A DNA stretch of 64,000 nucleotides, from positions 54,288-118,287 of IMG/VR virus record IMGVR_UViG_3300033146_002242; one strand, given 5' to 3'. This stretch comes from a virus. The notes below the pieces were generated by a model that was given only the letters and a program-made list of their open reading frames with translations, was not told the origin of the DNA and searched no databases. The translations under genes were made by a program, and so were the position numbers. Numbering within the stretch: the stretch's first letter is position 1; each line of letters starts with the position of its first letter. Below are positions 32,905 to 40,262 of this stretch, piece after piece.

Positions 32905-33555
32905 ATGAAGTCGATTAGATTAATTGAGTGTATGTCTACTTGGCAAGGAGAAGGGCCGGATACAGGCAGATATATGGTATTATGCCGATTTAAAAAATGT
33001 CAATTAAATTGTTCGTTTTGTGATACAATGGTATTAATGAAAAATGCTGTTGAAGGTGAATATACGTTTGATAGTATTCAGTCAAAAATAAATTCTGTTA
33101 ATGGTGGGTTATTGATTACAGGTGGTGAACCAACTTTATATTTAGATGAAACTGCTAGCTTATTAACAGAATTAGAATATTCAGTGGCTAATGTAGAAAC
33201 CAATGGTCATAAATTAAAAGAATTAATTTTACAAACACCTAAACATTTAAATGTTAAATTCATTTATTCCCCAAAAATATCATTAAATGATGATGAAGTT
33301 AAATCTTTTATTAATAATGAGAAAATTTATTTTAAATTTGTTATTGATAAATACGATGGTGCTGGCCCAACTATTACAACTAGATCATTAAATAAATTAC
33401 AAATTATGGGTTTTGATATGAGTCATGTTTATTTAATGCCAAAAGGTATTAATTATGGTGAATTAAAACAAAATTCAAAAACAGTTTGTGATTTAGCAGA
33501 ATATTATAATTGTAATATTTCAACTAGGATGCATTTAATTTATAATTTTTATTAG
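32905..33555 (+). CDS. queE: 7-carboxy-7-deazaguanine synthase (radical SAM)
   Basis: TWQGEG..G, CQLNCSFCDT, ITGGEP, VETNG, SPK, RMHL. Confidence 0.85.
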   Translation: MKSIRLIECMSTWQGEGPDTGRYMVLCRFKKCQLNCSFCDTMVLMKNAVEGEYTFDSIQSKINSVNGGLLITGGEPTLYLDETASLLTELEYSVANVETNGHKLKELILQTPKHLNVKFIYSPKISLNDDEVKSFINNEKIYFKFVIDKYDGAGPTITTRSLNKLQIMGFDMSHVYLMPKGINYGELKQNSKTVCDLAEYYNCNISTRMHLIYNFY

Positions 33556-33570: not shown

Positions 33571-33882
33571 ATGGAAAAACCTGTTGTAGAGGCATTAGAA
33601 ACAAGAGTTGCCGGAATTCCATTTGAAATTGCTGTACAAACTGCAAGTGGCATTATATGTGATCCACAACAATTGCCACAAGCATATGTAAAAGTTTTAT
33701 CAGTTGGCCCCGAGGTTAAAGGTATTAAGGTAGGAGATATTATTATGGGTCCGAAACATGGTGGACAAACAGTTGTGCATCAAGGAACCATATATAGAAT
33801 ATATGATAAAAATGAAATTTTTGGTATTTTAAATGATGACAATATCAAAATTGATGAAAAACCAATTCTCCATACAGTTTAA
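33571..33882 (+). CDS. groES: GroES-like co-chaperonin
   Basis: TASGII...VLSVGPEVKGIKVGDII..K..G....G..Y......EIFGIL. Confidence 0.75.
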   Translation: MEKPVVEALETRVAGIPFEIAVQTASGIICDPQQLPQAYVKVLSVGPEVKGIKVGDIIMGPKHGGQTVVHQGTIYRIYDKNEIFGILNDDNIKIDEKPILHTV

Positions 33883-33917: not shown

Positions 33918-34112
33918 GTGGCACATCCATTTTTTCACATATTTATTATGAAAAAAATATTAGCACCTTTTATTATTTTTGGTTATTGTATAGGATTGAT
34001 AGTAACAATTTTATTTTGTTTAATATTATCCATATTTACAATTCCTTTTAAATATTTATCTAAATTATATTTTCAATATAAATTTAAAATGAATAAGGTA
34101 AAAAATGAATAA
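33918..34112 (+). CDS. small membrane protein
   Basis: single hydrophobic segment. Confidence 0.45.
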   Translation: MAHPFFHIFIMKKILAPFIIFGYCIGLIVTILFCLILSIFTIPFKYLSKLYFQYKFKMNKVKNE

Positions 34113-34239
34113 AAATATTGAATTGATTCCAGTATCAGAAATAAAAATAGAATATGACCCATCTATGACAACTGCATATGATTTTACTGTAGAAGATTAT
34201 TTTACTTTTTGTACAGATGATGGTATTTTTGTACAGGAT
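34105..34239 (+). other. split intein C-fragment (45 aa) ending in Gln-Asp, +1 residue Ser
   Basis: AYDFTVEDYFTFCTDDGIFVQD matches the intein block F/G pattern (vYDltV...F....gi.vHN); directly follows the start Met region. Confidence 0.8.
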
Positions 34240-36138
34240 TCAATGTCAATTATACATCCTCTTTCTGATGAATCACAAGAAGAAATCAGAGAGAAAATGA
34301 ACTCTCCAAAATCTTTAAAATCATTAGATGGTTCAACTACATCATTATCAAAGGATATGTATGTTGGATTATATATTTTAACAAAACCAAAAAAGAAAAA
34401 ATCATCTCCAATTATTATCACAAGTCCAGAGCAATTAAATGATATAACAGACCCATATATTTTAGTTAAATTTAGAGGGCATGTTTGTACCGCAGGATTT
34501 GCAATATATAATTCATGTTTTCCAAGAGATTTTGAATTTCAAACAAAACAAGCAACAAAATCAGAATTAAATCGAGTCACAACAATTTGTTTAGAAAAAT
34601 ATGATAAAAATATTTTTAATGAAATTTTAGATAGATTATGTAAAATAGGATTTAAATGGGCTACAATAGCTGGATCCAGTTTTACTTTAAAAAATTTAGA
34701 TGTTCCACCAGAAATTGAAAAACTAAAAAAAGAAATGGTTGGGAAGGATCCTGAAACTGTATCAGCTTTATTAAATAAAGCTCAAAAAATAATTGAAAAA
34801 TATTTACACGATACTGGGTTAGGTGATATTATTGAAAGTGGATGTGCAAAAGGATATGGGCAATCCATGCAAATTTTGGTGGCAAAGGGATTGATTTCAT
34901 CTATGGAAGGTGGAATTTTACCCGGTATAGGTACATCATTTATCGATGGATTGCCTCCAGATATATTTTTTACAGCCGGTAGTGGTGCTAGACATGGAAT
35001 GGTTGGTAGAGCAATTAATACTGCTGACACAGGTTATTTGGCGAGAAAATTAGTTTATTTTTTAAACAGTGTGGAACTTCATCCTTCATTAGCTGATTGT
35101 AAAACAAATCGTACTTTAAAATTATCTATTATAGATAATAAACAAATCCAAAAATTAAAATTTAGATTTATTGAAAAAAACGGTAAAATAATTCCAATTG
35201 AACAAGCGGGTGTTAAAATTGGGGATGTTATTAATTTGAGATCACCAATTTTTTGTAAATCGCAAAAAATTTGTCATACTTGTCATGGAAAATCTTTTTT
35301 ACGTAAAGCTACACCATATATAGGTGTGACATATGGGCTGATATTAGGTGAGTCAGCAACACAAGCATCAATGGAAAAATTTCATACTGGCGGTGCTATT
35401 AAAATTAAAAAGAAAAACTTGGTTAATGATTTAATATCAAATGTACCTGTTTTGAATAAATCTATAATAAATCAATTTTTTACAACATCAGAAAATTCAT
35501 TAATTACCAAACAAGATTGTAAATTAGAAATTGATGTTGTTGATCTAAAAATGTCTGATGATGGTGATTATTATTATAATGAAGATAGTAAAAAATTGGT
35601 ATTTAAAAATTTAATTTCTACATATACATCTGGAACAACAACATTTCCTGTATTATTTGATTATGTTACTGAATTTGATATTGTTCATGTTATAAATCAA
35701 AATAAAGAAAAAATTGTATTAGAATTTATTAAAGGTGATGTTTTATTAATATCCCCATTAGAAGATACTGAGATGACAGAACTATCACGTTATTTAGATA
35801 GACTGATTGGTGGTAGAATTAAATTTTTTGATGTAGAACATTTGTTTTCAAAAATATATCAACAATATAAAGATTTATCACCTTTACCAATGGTATCGTA
35901 TGAAGTATTATTATCGCAAATTTTAAGATATAAAAAGGATCCTCAATATCCAGCTAGATTAGCTAAAGAATGGGATCCTATTTTATTAAATATGCGTAAA
36001 ACTATTTTTAATGAAGGTTTTATTCAGGGACTTGCTTTTGAAAATATAAATGAAGCAATTAGATCTGGATTAACTAAGAATACAGATGATAATTTGAATA
36101 TTCTGGAAAAAGTATTTACCGGAGAACAATTAAAATGA
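34105..36138 (+). CDS. rpoC: RNA polymerase beta' subunit, C-terminal half (starts immediately after the NADFDGD motif)
   Basis: SMSIIHPLSDESQEE ~ QMAVHVPL..EAQ.E; bridge helix GARHG...NTADTGYLARKLV; Zn site RSPIFC..ICHTCHG; trigger loop LGESATQASMEKFHTGG. Confidence 0.92.
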   Translation: MNKNIELIPVSEIKIEYDPSMTTAYDFTVEDYFTFCTDDGIFVQDSMSIIHPLSDESQEEIREKMNSPKSLKSLDGSTTSLSKDMYVGLYILTKPKKKKSSPIIITSPEQLNDITDPYILVKFRGHVCTAGFAIYNSCFPRDFEFQTKQATKSELNRVTTICLEKYDKNIFNEILDRLCKIGFKWATIAGSSFTLKNLDVPPEIEKLKKEMVGKDPETVSALLNKAQKIIEKYLHDTGLGDIIESGCAKGYGQSMQILVAKGLISSMEGGILPGIGTSFIDGLPPDIFFTAGSGARHGMVGRAINTADTGYLARKLVYFLNSVELHPSLADCKTNRTLKLSIIDNKQIQKLKFRFIEKNGKIIPIEQAGVKIGDVINLRSPIFCKSQKICHTCHGKSFLRKATPYIGVTYGLILGESATQASMEKFHTGGAIKIKKKNLVNDLISNVPVLNKSIINQFFTTSENSLITKQDCKLEIDVVDLKMSDDGDYYYNEDSKKLVFKNLISTYTSGTTTFPVLFDYVTEFDIVHVINQNKEKIVLEFIKGDVLLISPLEDTEMTELSRYLDRLIGGRIKFFDVEHLFSKIYQQYKDLSPLPMVSYEVLLSQILRYKKDPQYPARLAKEWDPILLNMRKTIFNEGFIQGLAFENINEAIRSGLTKNTDDNLNILEKVFTGEQLK

Positions 36139-39100
36139 TATCTTTTGATAACGCAAAAATATATAAAATATATAATGGGTTTAGATTTTATCAGCATCCT
36201 AAAAATCCATATTTTATTACATATTTATCTGAAAATTCATCTTTTTTAAAAGATTATCATAATTTAAATATTTCCAGAATTGATGTAAAAAATATAGTCA
36301 TGCCTATAACAAAAATACCAAGATCATATCCTTCTTCACAAGATAGGCAATTATATAAAAAATATAAATTATATTTATCATCCCCTAGAAAATTACCAAC
36401 TGGAAAAAATGTTATTTTTGATATATCTAAATATTTGTATTTGATTGATAGTACATATAAACCAATGACATATCGGCAAAAAGCTGGTAAAATGATTCAA
36501 AATATTGTTAGAGATGCATTTTATCAAGTACCTTCTAATTATGAAAAAATTCTGATGTATTCAGTTAGAGTTGATAAAGATTTTAATCCTAGTTATATTA
36601 ATAGAAAGATTTTTTTATTTTTAGAAGAAATACATGATAATAATTTTCCATATGATCATTTTATTTTATGTTTAATTTCTGAAAACAATGTATATTATCG
36701 TATTCTGATTAAAAACAGAGAATATTTTTTTAATAGATTGAAACAATATATTAAAAATATTAGAGAAATTGATGTTGAAAAAGAAAGTGAAGAAAATGAA
36801 GAACGTGAAAAATTATCACAAGATATTATAAAGAAAATTACTAACAATATTGAACCTAAAAATAAAGACGTTATAAAAAATGTATTAGCTGATTTTATTG
36901 AACAACATCCAGAAGAAGTAGAAAAAATTGTTAAAGATGATGTAGAAAATAATAAATCAGTGTCAGCATCAACAGCATATGATTTGGTATCAATAGCCAT
37001 TTTAGTTCAGAATAATAGAAATATAGAGAAATCGAAAAAAATAGTTCAAAACACTAATAAAAATCCTCTTGAAAAATTCAAAAAAATTGAAAAACAATTT
37101 GTTGATGAAATAATACCTATTCAAAAACCAACTGTTGATAATGATAGTGTTTTATATGAAAAAGTTAAAATAGCTGATTCAGTAGATAATATAGGACCAG
37201 ATCATATTTTTGAAAAACGTAAAAAAGATTTTACACAAAATCTTAAAAAAGATATTGCTTTAACTTTTAAAAGTTTAGATAATAGAGATGTGCCATTAAA
37301 AATACAATCTGTTAAATTTGAAAATTCACCTGACCAGTCACATAATTTAAATAAATCAGATATAACTGTAGCAGTAATTACACTTTTTGATAAAAAAGGA
37401 AAAAATCATACTGTTAGAATACAAATACCAAAAATTAATAAAGATGGTACATTTTTTATTAATGGTAAACGGAAGTGTTTAATTAATCAAATTTATCAAT
37501 TACCTATTCAATTTCCAAAACCATTTGAAGCTAAATTTGAAAGTTCATATTCAATGTTTTATATTTATAGTAAACATTTGGCAAAGGTAAATTATTTACA
37601 AATTTTTATGGGTACTTATAAATTACCACTGTCTATTGTTATGTTTTATGGTTTTGGATTTGATATTGTTCTAAAAAAGTTTGATATTAAGTATATGGTA
37701 CAAGATGAAGCACCACCTAAAGATACCAAATATGTTTTAAAAATTGATGGGAAATATTATATTTTTCATAATATTCATAAAGAAGTACAGATTCAATTTA
37801 TTAATTCATTGTTACGTGAAGATTTGAATGGAATAGCGAATGATTCTATTGAATTATTTTCTAAAGCATTTTTTAGTAAATTTATAATTAAAGATACTGG
37901 CCGTGTTAATTCAGTATATTTAATTCAAAATAACTTTGATAATATTGTTGATAATATTTCTAAAAGTATTTTGGCTTCTAAAGGTTATCCAACTAAACTA
38001 GCAGATATTATGTATTATATGTCTGTTGGGGCGGTAGAAGGATATACTATAAAAAGAAATGATTTAGATAATCAAAGAATTAGAAGTTCTGAAATTATTT
38101 CCCATTTATTACAGAAAGAAGTTTTGACAGCATATACTATTTATAAAGAAAAATATTTAGCAGGAAATGAAGATGCTAAATTTGAAATGGCTGAAACAAA
38201 ATTGTTATCTGAATTTAGTATGGCTGAAATTGTTGCTAATATGGAATATGCTAATCCAATTGAAGAATTATCTGTTATGACAAGGGTCAGCCCAATTGGT
38301 AAAAATATTGGTGGTGTTCCAAATAAAGATACTATTACTTTAGAAGGTAGAAGTTTACATAAAACATATTTTGGTAATATAGATCCTGTTGATACACCAG
38401 AAGGGCCAGGTGTTGGTGTGACACAACATTTAGCTATCGGTGCGGCTATTTCTACTTCTAGAGGATTATTTTCTGAGCAAAAAGATGCTATGAAAAAACC
38501 AACTACTACAATTTCAACAACAACTGCAATGATACCATTTATGCAAAATAATGATGGTAATAGAGTCATGTTTGGTTCTGGTCAAATGAAACAAGCAGTT
38601 CCGTTAAAAAATCCAGAACCACCTATTGTTCAAACTGGTTATGAATCTATTTTAACTCATAATTTATCTGATAATTTTATTAAAAGATCTGAATGTAGTG
38701 GAAAAGTTTTAAAGATAACAGATTCACAAATTTTCATTCAATGTAAAGATAGTAAAAAAATTGAAAAAATTGATTTAACACCTGTTCATTTATCATCTGG
38801 TTCTGGTAGAGATACTTTAAGTGAATTTAATGTAGTTGTTAAAGAAGGGCAAACAGTAAAACAAAATCAAAGAATAGCCGAAGGTGCATCTATAAAAGAT
38901 GGTTTTCTTTCATTAGGAAGAAATTTATGTGCAGCTTTTATGTCATGGAAAGGGTATAATTTTGAAGATGGGATTGTTGTAAACGAATCAGTTATTAAAA
39001 ATGAAAAATTAAAATCTTTGCATGGTATGGTGGAAGAAGTTCAATTATCAAAAAAAGATAAAATTTTAGATATAATTAAGATTGGTACACATACTAAGCA

Positions 39101-40262
39101 TGGAGATGTTTTATTAAAAAAATCTATTGGTGATTTAGATGAATTATTGGGAATTGATGATAGTGATGATGAAGATTTATTAACTGATTTTGCTGATGGT
39201 AAAATGATAAAAAAATCACCCGGTGGTGTTATAGCAAATATAGAAATTTTTTCAAATGATAAACCAGATAAATTTCCTGAATATGTACAAGAAATAATTA
39301 AAAAAACAAATAAAAGATATGGTAATCCAAAATTATCATATCGAAATAAAAAAGGACCTATTCAAGGAACTTTGATTAAATTTTATATTAATCAAGAAAT
39401 GAATCTGATGCACGGCGATAAAATGACAAATCGACATGGTGCAAAAGGTGTTATATCATTAATTGAAAAAGAAGAAAATATGCCTTTAACACCGTGGGGC
39501 GATAAAGTTGAAATTATTCTAAATCCGGTTGGTGTTATCAATAGAATGAATGTTGGTCAATTATTAGAAATGAATATGGGACTTGTTTCTAAAGTTTTAG
39601 CTTTACAAATTTTAAAAAATAAAAACAGTAAATCAACGGTAATTAAAATTATTAAAAATGTATTAAAATTAATTGATAAAACTAATAAACAAGTAATTGT
39701 ATCATCAATAATATCAACCTTAAATGCAATGAGTAGTACTAAATATAAACAATTTATTGAAGAATTAGAATCATATACATTTTTTCCTATTATTATTCCA
39801 CCTTATAAATCTCCTAAAATTGAAGATATTTATAAAGTTTATTCATATTTAAAATTACCAAAAACTTATCATTTATATTTACCAGAATATAAATCAAAAA
39901 CAATTGAGGATGTTGCAGTTGGTTATATTTATTATGAAAAATTAGAACACATAGGTAATTTAAAATTACATAGTAGAAGTACAGGTCCTGTTATAGCTAA
40001 AACAGGTCAACCAACAGCTGGGAAAAGGAAAGGTGGCGGTGTACGTGTTGGTGAATCAGATGTTTATGCATTATTAGCCCATAATAGTACAACTGTTGTT
40101 AATGAATTGTTTGGGGCAATGTCTGATGGGGCACAGTCTAAAAACGAAGAAATTTCCAACATATTAATGAATGGGCATACTAAATATGTTCATCAAAAAT
40201 CATCACCAACTGGTAATTTATTAAGAGCTTATTTAGTTGCTATGATGATTGAAAAGGGATAA
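36135..40262 (+). CDS. rpoB: RNA polymerase beta subunit with ~400-aa N-terminal extension
   Basis: GTFFING, DPVDTPEG, NDGNRVMFGSGQMKQAVPL, GYNFEDG, GDKMTNRHGAKGVIS, NRMNVGQ, KLEH..KLHSRS, GGVRVGESD. Confidence 0.95.
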   Translation: MISFDNAKIYKIYNGFRFYQHPKNPYFITYLSENSSFLKDYHNLNISRIDVKNIVMPITKIPRSYPSSQDRQLYKKYKLYLSSPRKLPTGKNVIFDISKYLYLIDSTYKPMTYRQKAGKMIQNIVRDAFYQVPSNYEKILMYSVRVDKDFNPSYINRKIFLFLEEIHDNNFPYDHFILCLISENNVYYRILIKNREYFFNRLKQYIKNIREIDVEKESEENEEREKLSQDIIKKITNNIEPKNKDVIKNVLADFIEQHPEEVEKIVKDDVENNKSVSASTAYDLVSIAILVQNNRNIEKSKKIVQNTNKNPLEKFKKIEKQFVDEIIPIQKPTVDNDSVLYEKVKIADSVDNIGPDHIFEKRKKDFTQNLKKDIALTFKSLDNRDVPLKIQSVKFENSPDQSHNLNKSDITVAVITLFDKKGKNHTVRIQIPKINKDGTFFINGKRKCLINQIYQLPIQFPKPFEAKFESSYSMFYIYSKHLAKVNYLQIFMGTYKLPLSIVMFYGFGFDIVLKKFDIKYMVQDEAPPKDTKYVLKIDGKYYIFHNIHKEVQIQFINSLLREDLNGIANDSIELFSKAFFSKFIIKDTGRVNSVYLIQNNFDNIVDNISKSILASKGYPTKLADIMYYMSVGAVEGYTIKRNDLDNQRIRSSEIISHLLQKEVLTAYTIYKEKYLAGNEDAKFEMAETKLLSEFSMAEIVANMEYANPIEELSVMTRVSPIGKNIGGVPNKDTITLEGRSLHKTYFGNIDPVDTPEGPGVGVTQHLAIGAAISTSRGLFSEQKDAMKKPTTTISTTTAMIPFMQNNDGNRVMFGSGQMKQAVPLKNPEPPIVQTGYESILTHNLSDNFIKRSECSGKVLKITDSQIFIQCKDSKKIEKIDLTPVHLSSGSGRDTLSEFNVVVKEGQTVKQNQRIAEGASIKDGFLSLGRNLCAAFMSWKGYNFEDGIVVNESVIKNEKLKSLHGMVEEVQLSKKDKILDIIKIGTHTKHGDVLLKKSIGDLDELLGIDDSDDEDLLTDFADGKMIKKSPGGVIANIEIFSNDKPDKFPEYVQEIIKKTNKRYGNPKLSYRNKKGPIQGTLIKFYINQEMNLMHGDKMTNRHGAKGVISLIEKEENMPLTPWGDKVEIILNPVGVINRMNVGQLLEMNMGLVSKVLALQILKNKNSKSTVIKIIKNVLKLIDKTNKQVIVSSIISTLNAMSSTKYKQFIEELESYTFFPIIIPPYKSPKIEDIYKVYSYLKLPKTYHLYLPEYKSKTIEDVAVGYIYYEKLEHIGNLKLHSRSTGPVIAKTGQPTAGKRKGGGVRVGESDVYALLAHNSTTVVNELFGAMSDGAQSKNEEISNILMNGHTKYVHQKSSPTGNLLRAYLVAMMIEKG

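Follow-up and report, generated by a model that had tools for sequence, protein, structure and literature searches.

An open reading frame (ORF) for the C-terminal part of an RNA polymerase (RNAP) beta' subunit, in virus record IMGVR_UViG_3300033146_002242, starts with 45 residues that resemble the C-terminal end of an intein, and raises the question of where the missing parts of both proteins are and whether the pieces become one chain. The ORF lies in a stretch of 64,000 nucleotides, here called the window, which corresponds to bases 54288-118287 of this linear record of 118,287 bases (26% G+C; about 38% complete by the CheckV estimate). The answer favoured by our analysis, to which we give a probability of roughly 80%, is that a naturally split intein, real and conserved, sits at the active site of a phage RNAP and very probably acts by trans-splicing. 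This reading is supported by the presence of both genes, by the position of the join at the catalytic motif, by the conservation of the reactive residues, by the classical intein architecture found in relatives and by the predicted docking of the two halves.

Residues 146-457 of the encoded protein, IntC-beta'C, correspond to the Pfam domains Rpb1_5 and Rpb1_3 (PF04998, E 1.7e-13; PF04983, E 4.6e-5), identifying it as the C-terminal part of beta'. The intein C-half (IntC) in front of it ends in G-I-F-V-Q-D, and the C-extein opens with S-M-S-I-I-H-P-L, of which Ser46 is the first residue. IntC contains a block F with a Y-D pair and a block G with penultimate Gln44 and terminal Asp45; D26, Q44 and D45 are invariant in the IntC family alignment. 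A first-pass annotation made from the sequence alone had described a 45-residue intein head followed by Ser, and exactly the residues it quoted are present. It placed the feature at 34105-34260; the start stands but the end does not, since IntC ends at 34239 and the proposed end lies 7 codons into the C-extein. The C-extein aligns to the residues that follow the NADFDGD motif in contiguous relatives of about 1005 aa.

The first-pass annotation had also reported that no ORF bearing NADFDGD lies in the window, and a search for a DFDGD-type motif in all six frames of the window was indeed empty. It predicted instead a distant gene for the N-terminal part of beta', ending in NADFDGD followed by Cys or Ser and about 100 residues of an intein N-half (IntN). 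Such a gene was found. The only Rpb1_2 match in the whole 118-kb record (E 2.4e-20) falls in a 507-aa ORF in which NADFDGD occupies residues 372-378 and is followed by Ser379, the first residue of a 129-residue IntN, and then by the stop codon. The block-B equivalent of this IntN, S-D-D-H, is found at beta'-N residues 471-474 within S-D-D-H-S-M-I, and the TTG start is consistent with the N-termini of relatives. Rpb1_5 likewise has one match in the record, and a six-frame hidden Markov model scan of the record with IntN and IntC profiles gave exactly one IntN and one IntC. The two genes are 76.5 kb apart and on opposite strands. With a stop right after IntN, and a start codon and a Shine-Dalgarno-like motif ahead of IntC, the halves are carried by two separately translated genes.

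The lengths of the exteins agree with those of undivided proteins: the N-extein (378 aa) and the C-extein (632 aa) add up to 1010 aa, and the 98 intein-free contiguous relatives are single genes of 990-1020 aa (median 1005 aa). At the position of the join these relatives read NADFDGD-[T/Q/A]-M-A, the residue after the motif being T in 49, Q in 32, A in 15, and S and M in one each. The alignment with these relatives bears out the earlier proposal that the join comes immediately after NADFDGD. Together the extra pieces measure 174 aa (129 + 45), which matches a mini-intein in length, and they separate the final Asp of the Mg-binding motif from the very next residue. From its sequence, the element would be a class-1-type intein placed right after that Asp in the beta' subunit of a phage multisubunit RNAP.

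Database proteins closest to IntC-beta'C fell into two groups: about a dozen of 672-705 aa, which cover the full query including its 45-residue head, and many of about 1005 aa with both Rpb1_2 and Rpb1_5. About 25 N-half proteins (501-532 aa) share the IntN tail. Counted over independent assemblies, the termini fall at the same positions in at least 12 C-halves and in about 25 N-halves.

A seven-sequence IntC profile searched against the PDB gave only three matches, all of them inteins (two TFIIB mini-inteins and Mja KlbA; E 0.09-0.5) and all aligned on block F, so that the likeness to intein blocks F and G noted in the first-pass annotation goes beyond chance. The AlphaFold2 model of IntN alone (predicted local distance difference test, pLDDT, 73) had inteins as all of its eight best Foldseek matches (E 0.02-0.17). 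Aligned with VIA-align to the Pho PolII mini-intein, PI-PfuI and another archaeal intein, it gave Z values of 6.0-6.3 with a root-mean-square deviation of 2.9-3.2 A over 78-82 residues.

Docking of the two halves, each with its own alignment, was predicted together with three controls, using an ipSAE mark that is reached by 58 of 80 solved complexes and by 2 of 110 mismatched pairs. IntN and IntC docked with an ipSAE of 0.83, against 0.00 for the best control, with a contact agreement between runs of at least 90% and a partner pLDDT of at least 74. The predicted interface spans both splice junctions (residues 377-385 of chain 1; residues 4-19 and 21-46 of chain 2). The result may partly reflect resemblance to the split-intein complexes already in the PDB, and such a prediction shows likeness, not binding. 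The two-chain prediction and the LAGLIDADG-bearing cis relatives described below lend support to a predicted HINT fold.

The reactive residues were tallied by applying the IntN and IntC profiles to every family member collected. Intein residue 1, which is Ser379 here, is S in 28, T in 3 and C in one of the family members. In block B, read as S/T-x-D-H, both S/T and His are found in 130 of the 133 aligned sequences, and a further His, residue 72 of IntN (beta'-N His450), is invariant. The terminal intein residue is Asp in 76 of 76 relatives. The penultimate one is Q in 51, Y in 16, F in 3, W and M in two each, and V and N in one each; it is never His (0/76). Relatives are 61-77% identical in IntC and 44-61% in IntN, and whole C-half proteins 41-63%; the conserved IntC stretch is 45-53 residues long, and it keeps this level of identity in relatives with exteins that are only 41-43% identical. 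By these identities, the intein halves are at least as conserved as the host protein.

The alternative that survives best is that the halves only hold the beta' pieces together, with no chemistry or with cleavage but no ligation, leaving beta' as two pieces that are not covalently joined, like that of phiKZ- or AR9-type phages. Tight association of the halves is what the docking predicts, the helpers of the last step (Asn, penultimate His and block-F His) are absent, and jumbo-phage RNAPs are known to work with beta' as separate polypeptides (PMC7598289). The known split in jumbo-phage beta', however, comes after the double-psi beta-barrel (DPBB) domain and not within the Mg-binding loop (PMC7598289), and a HINT domain of 174 residues remaining at that loop would fill the active centre. 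The +1 residue is T in 56, S in 19 and C in one of the intein-bearing relatives, and thereby a nucleophile in 76 of 76, compared with S or T in 50 of the 98 intein-free relatives. Transesterification calls for such a nucleophile at +1; mere association or cleavage needs none. Residue 1 is moreover always S, T or C, the block-B His is almost never missing, and a terminal Asp is a known splicing-competent variant (PMC4031507). A purely non-covalent role is for these reasons quite improbable.

To see how the intein occurs in other genomes, the IntN profile was searched against 1.8 billion representative proteins. It gave 107 matches with E up to 0.001, located after [N/G]ADFDGD or a close variant wherever the upstream residues were present. 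Four forms were found. Cis mini-inteins of about 173-176 aa occur, for example, in a beta' of 1146 aa. Larger cis inteins measure 450-536 aa, some of them within polymerase proteins of 2000-3000 aa, and Pfam LAGLIDADG_3 lies between the IntN-like and IntC-like parts in six of the seven larger relatives scanned. A third form comprises split inteins resembling that of the window, and a fourth, with more than 30 clusters, has an ORF starting M-K-L-F at about intein position 26. In one ENA contig (ERZ27247916; L013:3382-8346), beta'-N ends in NADFDGD and a 31-residue IntN, the next gene encodes a 462-aa DUF7487 protein, and the third starts with M-K-L-F and has a 152-residue IntC containing block B. 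The same intein family is thus divided here at another, atypical position.

Three IMG/VR contigs (L005, L007 and L008) show the gene order beta'N-IntN, an intervening gene of 358-658 aa, IntC-beta'C and beta. The intervening proteins match DUF7487, and weakly DUF559, Vsr, PvuRts1I-like or HNH_3; the weak Vsr, DUF559 and HNH_3 matches sit at the C-terminal ends of the DUF7487 proteins. Fractured genes, as described by Dassa et al. (2009, PMC2677866), are split inteins with a free-standing homing-endonuclease gene of the Vsr-like or GIY-YIG type between the halves. The DUF7487 proteins resemble such free-standing endonucleases, and the DUF, listed as of 'unknown function', would thereby acquire one. 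A free-standing endonuclease-like gene between the halves is found in L005, L007, L008 and L013 and not in the genome of the window. There, Pfam and similarity comparison detected no endonuclease remnant beside either half, the neighbours being a 95-aa and a 64-aa ORF. The 95-aa ORF after beta'-N was considered as such a remnant and rejected: it is unlike the DUF7487 protein and the L012 ORF found at that place, and has no Pfam match.

A FastTree phylogeny of the C-extein was built from 80 proteins. Nine C-halves of the window's clade form a group with 100% support, sister to three intein-free proteins. The three other proteins split at residue 45 each adjoin intein-free relatives on short branches; the one of these three loci that was inspected (P0013/L005) has the fractured layout. 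Well-supported branches of the tree require at least four gains or losses. The distribution of the intein is thus patchy, which is what a mobile element gives. In L007 (53,189 b), identity to the proteins described here is only 34-36% in the exteins, as against 50% in IntN and 69% in IntC. That the intein is closer than the exteins suggests its transfer between distant polymerase lineages.

A C-half with 63% identity was found in another sample (L010) in the same neighbourhood, consisting of PolB, the radical-SAM gene, Cpn10, IntC-beta'C and beta, and a beta'-N with 68% identity was found in the same sample as L010 on a different contig. Because of this syntenic relative in another sample and its beta'-N on a separate contig, the dispersed layout is not an assembly artefact; it is stable in the window's clade.

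These findings bear on the possibility that the split does not truly exist in the living phage: the layout could be an artefact of assembly or rearrangement, the two genes could be pseudogenes in decay, or they could duplicate an intact beta' encoded in the 60% of the genome that the record does not cover. All data are metagenomic and the record is a linear fragment of 38% estimated completeness. Both ORFs are nevertheless undamaged: IntN is followed by a proper stop, and IntC is preceded by a Shine-Dalgarno-like motif and a start. Their termini are shared among the independent assemblies counted above, the nine closest C-halves form a fully supported clade that includes a member with the same neighbourhood, a beta'-N from that member's sample is on another contig, and the catalytic residues are conserved. 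We consider an unreal split very unlikely. It is scarcely credible that the extensions of 45 and 129 residues have nothing to do with inteins and are terminal domains, specific to this lineage, of a beta' made in two pieces: neither piece has a significant Pfam or PDB sequence match, but the same two pieces flank LAGLIDADG in cis at the same site in related proteins, the top structural and profile matches are inteins, and conservation extends to the +1 nucleophile and to the pattern of blocks A, B, F and G.

Several points weigh against a splicing-competent split intein. Neither half reaches a Pfam intein model at threshold, the best being PT-HINT (E 0.082) at the C-terminal end of IntC; the missing match indicates that the sequence has diverged and does not speak against the fold. 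IntN has no meaningful PDB sequence match, either as a single sequence or as a five-sequence profile. Taken alone, IntN has modest structural matches (Z about 6), in a range that, according to the tool, a common arrangement can also give; modest values are expected because IntN is half a domain. Block G does not have the penultimate His and terminal Asn and shows Gln-Asp instead, which is atypical but a documented functional variation (PMC4031507). With block-F His replaced by Phe/Tyr, the usual helpers of the last step are all missing. Ligation, and the chemistry by which the terminal Asp would cyclise, are what we infer from the sequences. A second, intact beta' may be encoded elsewhere in the genome, given the completeness of the record.

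According to Mills, Johnson and Perler (2014, PMC4031507), inteins ending in Asp, Gln or Glu go through the same steps, with that residue cyclising in step 3, and a penultimate His is absent from about 5% of functional inteins. The first-pass annotation was correct in treating a terminal Asp as known but rare.

The residues present (Ser1, S-x-D-H, block-F Asp, terminal Asp and Ser+1) are those expected of a class-1 pathway that proceeds through oxyesters. On this pathway, IntN and IntC would fold jointly into one HINT domain. Intein Ser1 would then attack the Asp378-Ser379 peptide bond, giving an ester, and Ser+1 (Ser46 of the C-half protein) would receive the N-extein by transesterification. 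The terminal Asp45 would cyclise to an anhydride, in place of the usual Asn succinimide, and release the intein. Finally, an O-to-N shift would produce a normal peptide bond in ...NADFDGD-S-M-S-I-I-H-P..., and the resulting 1010-aa beta' would pair with the adjacent beta.

In the lineage of the window, the endonuclease found between the halves in related loci is gone, and the halves have come to lie 76.5 kb apart on opposite strands. With the endonuclease gone and the halves dispersed, the element would therefore be fixed and the phage dependent on it. A more ambitious, joint proposal is that this is a catalytic-loop intein family in which an obligatory terminal Asp has replaced the Asn/His machinery, that the last step is an anhydride reaction without histidines, perhaps dependent on conditions such as Mg2+, pH or beta docking because the -1 residue is itself a Mg-binding Asp, that trans-splicing times the polymerase, and that endonuclease-driven fracture is one route to the permanently split beta' of jumbo phages. 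We think it unlikely that all of this holds together. That the split arrangement gates polymerase activity, or that the intein is orthogonal and useful, as the first-pass annotation suggested, is speculation.

Coordinates of the features of the two loci and of the genes found between split halves in relatives are given in Table 1.

Table 1. Features of the split beta' genes, their neighbours and the DUF7487 genes of related loci; unprefixed coordinates are positions in the window.
Feature	Coordinates	Strand	Remarks
IntC-beta'C ORF	34105..36138	+	677 aa
Intein C-half (IntC) proper	34105..34239	+	45 codons; family alignment, PDB profile matches, predicted IntN interface
Ser46 codon, putative +1 nucleophile, C-extein residue 1	34240..34242	+	Nucleophile in 76/76 intein-bearing relatives
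C-extein, C-terminal 632 residues of beta' (Rpb1 domains 3 and 5) and stop codon	34240..36138	+	
Shine-Dalgarno-like AAGGT	34095..34099	+	5 nt before the IntC-beta'C ATG; 6 nt from GG; direct sequence reading
RNA polymerase beta subunit gene	36135..40262	+	1375 aa; Pfam Rpb2_6 E 1.3e-47, Rpb2_3 E 2.1e-10
Hydrophobic 64-aa ORF	33918..34112	+	Stop overlaps IntC start codon; no family
GroES/Cpn10-like gene	33571..33882	+	Pfam Cpn10 E 4.7e-4, 20.6 bits against a cut-off of 21.1
Radical-SAM / 4Fe-4S protein	32905-33555		216 aa; QueE-like by size and motifs
beta'N-IntN gene	G000:C1:10367-11890	minus	507 aa; outside the window; Pfam Rpb1_2
DUF7487 proteins between split halves	L005:1903-2976, L007:1726-2916, L008:1007-2980, L009:409-1497, L013:4612-6000		

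Downstream, the beta gene overlaps the stop codon of beta'-C by 4 nt, and the same gene order is found in relatives; from this context, beta is predicted to be the partner subunit of the spliced beta'. Upstream, the 64-aa hydrophobic ORF (window 33918-34112) has its stop overlapping the start codon of the IntC-beta'C gene (ATGAATAA). It sits where relatives carry the homing-endonuclease gene, Pfam gave no intein or endonuclease signal for it, and no gene is called at that place in the syntenic relative L010. The Cpn10-like gene is the next upstream neighbour, also in L010. The first-pass annotation had found neither an intein N-part nor beta' sequence in these two upstream ORFs; this agrees with the weak Cpn10 match of the one and the lack of any family for the other. 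The radical-SAM gene adjoins a 215-aa gene and a family B DNA polymerase gene, and the radical-SAM and polymerase genes are placed alike in L010.

Other observations concern more distant or irregular relatives. In L009:1493-2804 the IntC frame stops two codons past the splice site (V-Q-D-T-N-stop) and the beta'-C domains resume in another ORF from 1602, so that either a frameshift or a further interruption is present. Giant RNAPs with a cis intein of the present family, about 450-525 aa long, after x-D-F-D-G-D are found in L019 (DAOQAF010000001.1, binned as Bacteroidales), P0332, P0333, P0338, P0341 and P0342. These proteins are 2000-3082 aa long, the L019 frame exceeding 2600 aa, and some read H-V-P-V-S past the join, like archaeal or eukaryotic-type enzymes; they are probably fused beta-beta' or giant-virus-like subunits. 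Two split beta' N-halves (P0142 and P0144) are recorded at NCBI as hypothetical proteins of Candidatus Izimaplasma and 'bacterium' metagenome-assembled genomes (MAGs).

A scan of genome contigs for NADFDGD followed by S, T or C returned, among the matches listed, mostly NADFDGD-T contigs of bacteria or MAGs, in addition to L019, and no archaeal RNAP. Also among the matches listed were L041, L067 and L081, MAG contigs binned as Mycoplasmataceae in which NADFDGD is followed by S or T, and which may be mis-binned phage contigs. In 50,697 GenBank phage records, tblastn with IntN found no relative, and the beta'-C protein had no relative above 25% identity. The LAGLIDADG-bearing relative P0291 matches phage isolates only outside its intein.

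A full-text search of the literature found no description of an intein at the NADFDGD site of phage RNA polymerases. Inteins go unmentioned in a review of jumbo-phage RNAPs (PMC7598289), and the mentions of them found in the jumbo-phage literature concern PolB, GyrA, ribonucleotide reductase (RNR) or terminase. Precedents exist for split inteins, for fractured genes, for dispersed halves (DnaE) and for non-Asn termini. As far as we found, what is new is the host and site, namely the catalytic loop of a bacterial-type beta' in phages, a sequence family beyond the curated models, and an Asp terminus throughout that family.

If splicing occurs as proposed, the only recognisable RNAP catalytic subunit of this virus could not exist before the proteins of two distant genes are ligated at the metal-binding loop, which would impose a strict post-translational dependency on the viral transcription machine. 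A single insertion site shows all the proposed stages of intein evolution: LAGLIDADG cis inteins, cis mini-inteins, genes fractured at two positions by a free-standing endonuclease and fully dispersed halves. The invariant terminal Asp, in a family without the usual histidines, opens the Asp route of the last step, which has received little study, to tests in many natural variants. Ser/Thr-based split inteins are wanted for protein engineering, and the natural Ser1/Ser+1 pair is a candidate, though two non-catalytic cysteines remain, at IntN residues 4 and 6.

Among known systems, the arrangement can be compared with the split inteins of Ssp and Npu DnaE. There too an essential polymerase subunit is encoded in two genes and assembled by trans-splicing, with no endonuclease, a canonical split site, a long IntN and a short IntC. 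On the cyanobacterial chromosome, the dnaE halves are widely separated. No sequence relationship to the DnaE inteins is detectable, and the Npu DnaE structure aligns to the IntN model with a Z of only 2.9. The DnaE inteins use Cys1, Cys+1 and Asn, whereas here Ser1, Ser+1 and Asp are found and the host is an RNA polymerase. We know of no characterised natural split intein that ends in Asp.

The inteins discussed in PMC4031507 resemble the present one in having a non-Asn terminal residue that is expected to cyclise and in missing the penultimate His. The examples there are Gln-ending and cis-splicing (Pab and Mma Pol II, CIV RNR), whereas in the present family Asp is invariant and the block-F His is absent as well. 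The oxyester chemistry of Ser1 with Ser or Thr at +1 is shared with Aes123 PolB1 and PolB16 OarG (Pasch et al. 2023, PMC10189870), which likewise come from phage or metagenome sources. The structure of fused Aes123 PolB1 is the top Foldseek match of the IntN model, and PolB16 OarG aligns to it with a Z of 4.4. A motif NX His is specific for Ser1 inteins (Pasch et al., PMC10189870), and the invariant IntN His72 might, by analogy, correspond to it. These two inteins end in Asn (the structures carry N159A and N183A) and occupy another site in another host protein; PolB16 is split after 15 residues, compared with the canonical site used here (129 + 45).

L005, L007, L008 and L013, all phage contigs, share the layout of the fractured genes: N-extein-IntN, an endonuclease-like gene and IntC-C-extein. 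The genome of the window differs in that no endonuclease lies between its widely separated, oppositely oriented halves. The hosts reported by Dassa et al. are only enzymes of DNA metabolism or packaging, such as IMPDH, DnaE, NrdA, NrdJ, ligase and terminase, and the words 'RNA polymerase' are never used in that paper; its inteins have a terminal Asn and Cys nucleophiles, in contrast to the Asp and Ser/Thr found here (PMC2677866). Inteins in the largest RNAP subunit have been described from archaea (Mja rPol A' and A'', Nph rPol A''), Nucleocytoviricota and Anaeramoeba (PMC1635734, PMC10710043). They share the host protein family with the intein of the window, but those splice in cis, whereas the two halves described here are encoded apart and very probably meet in trans.

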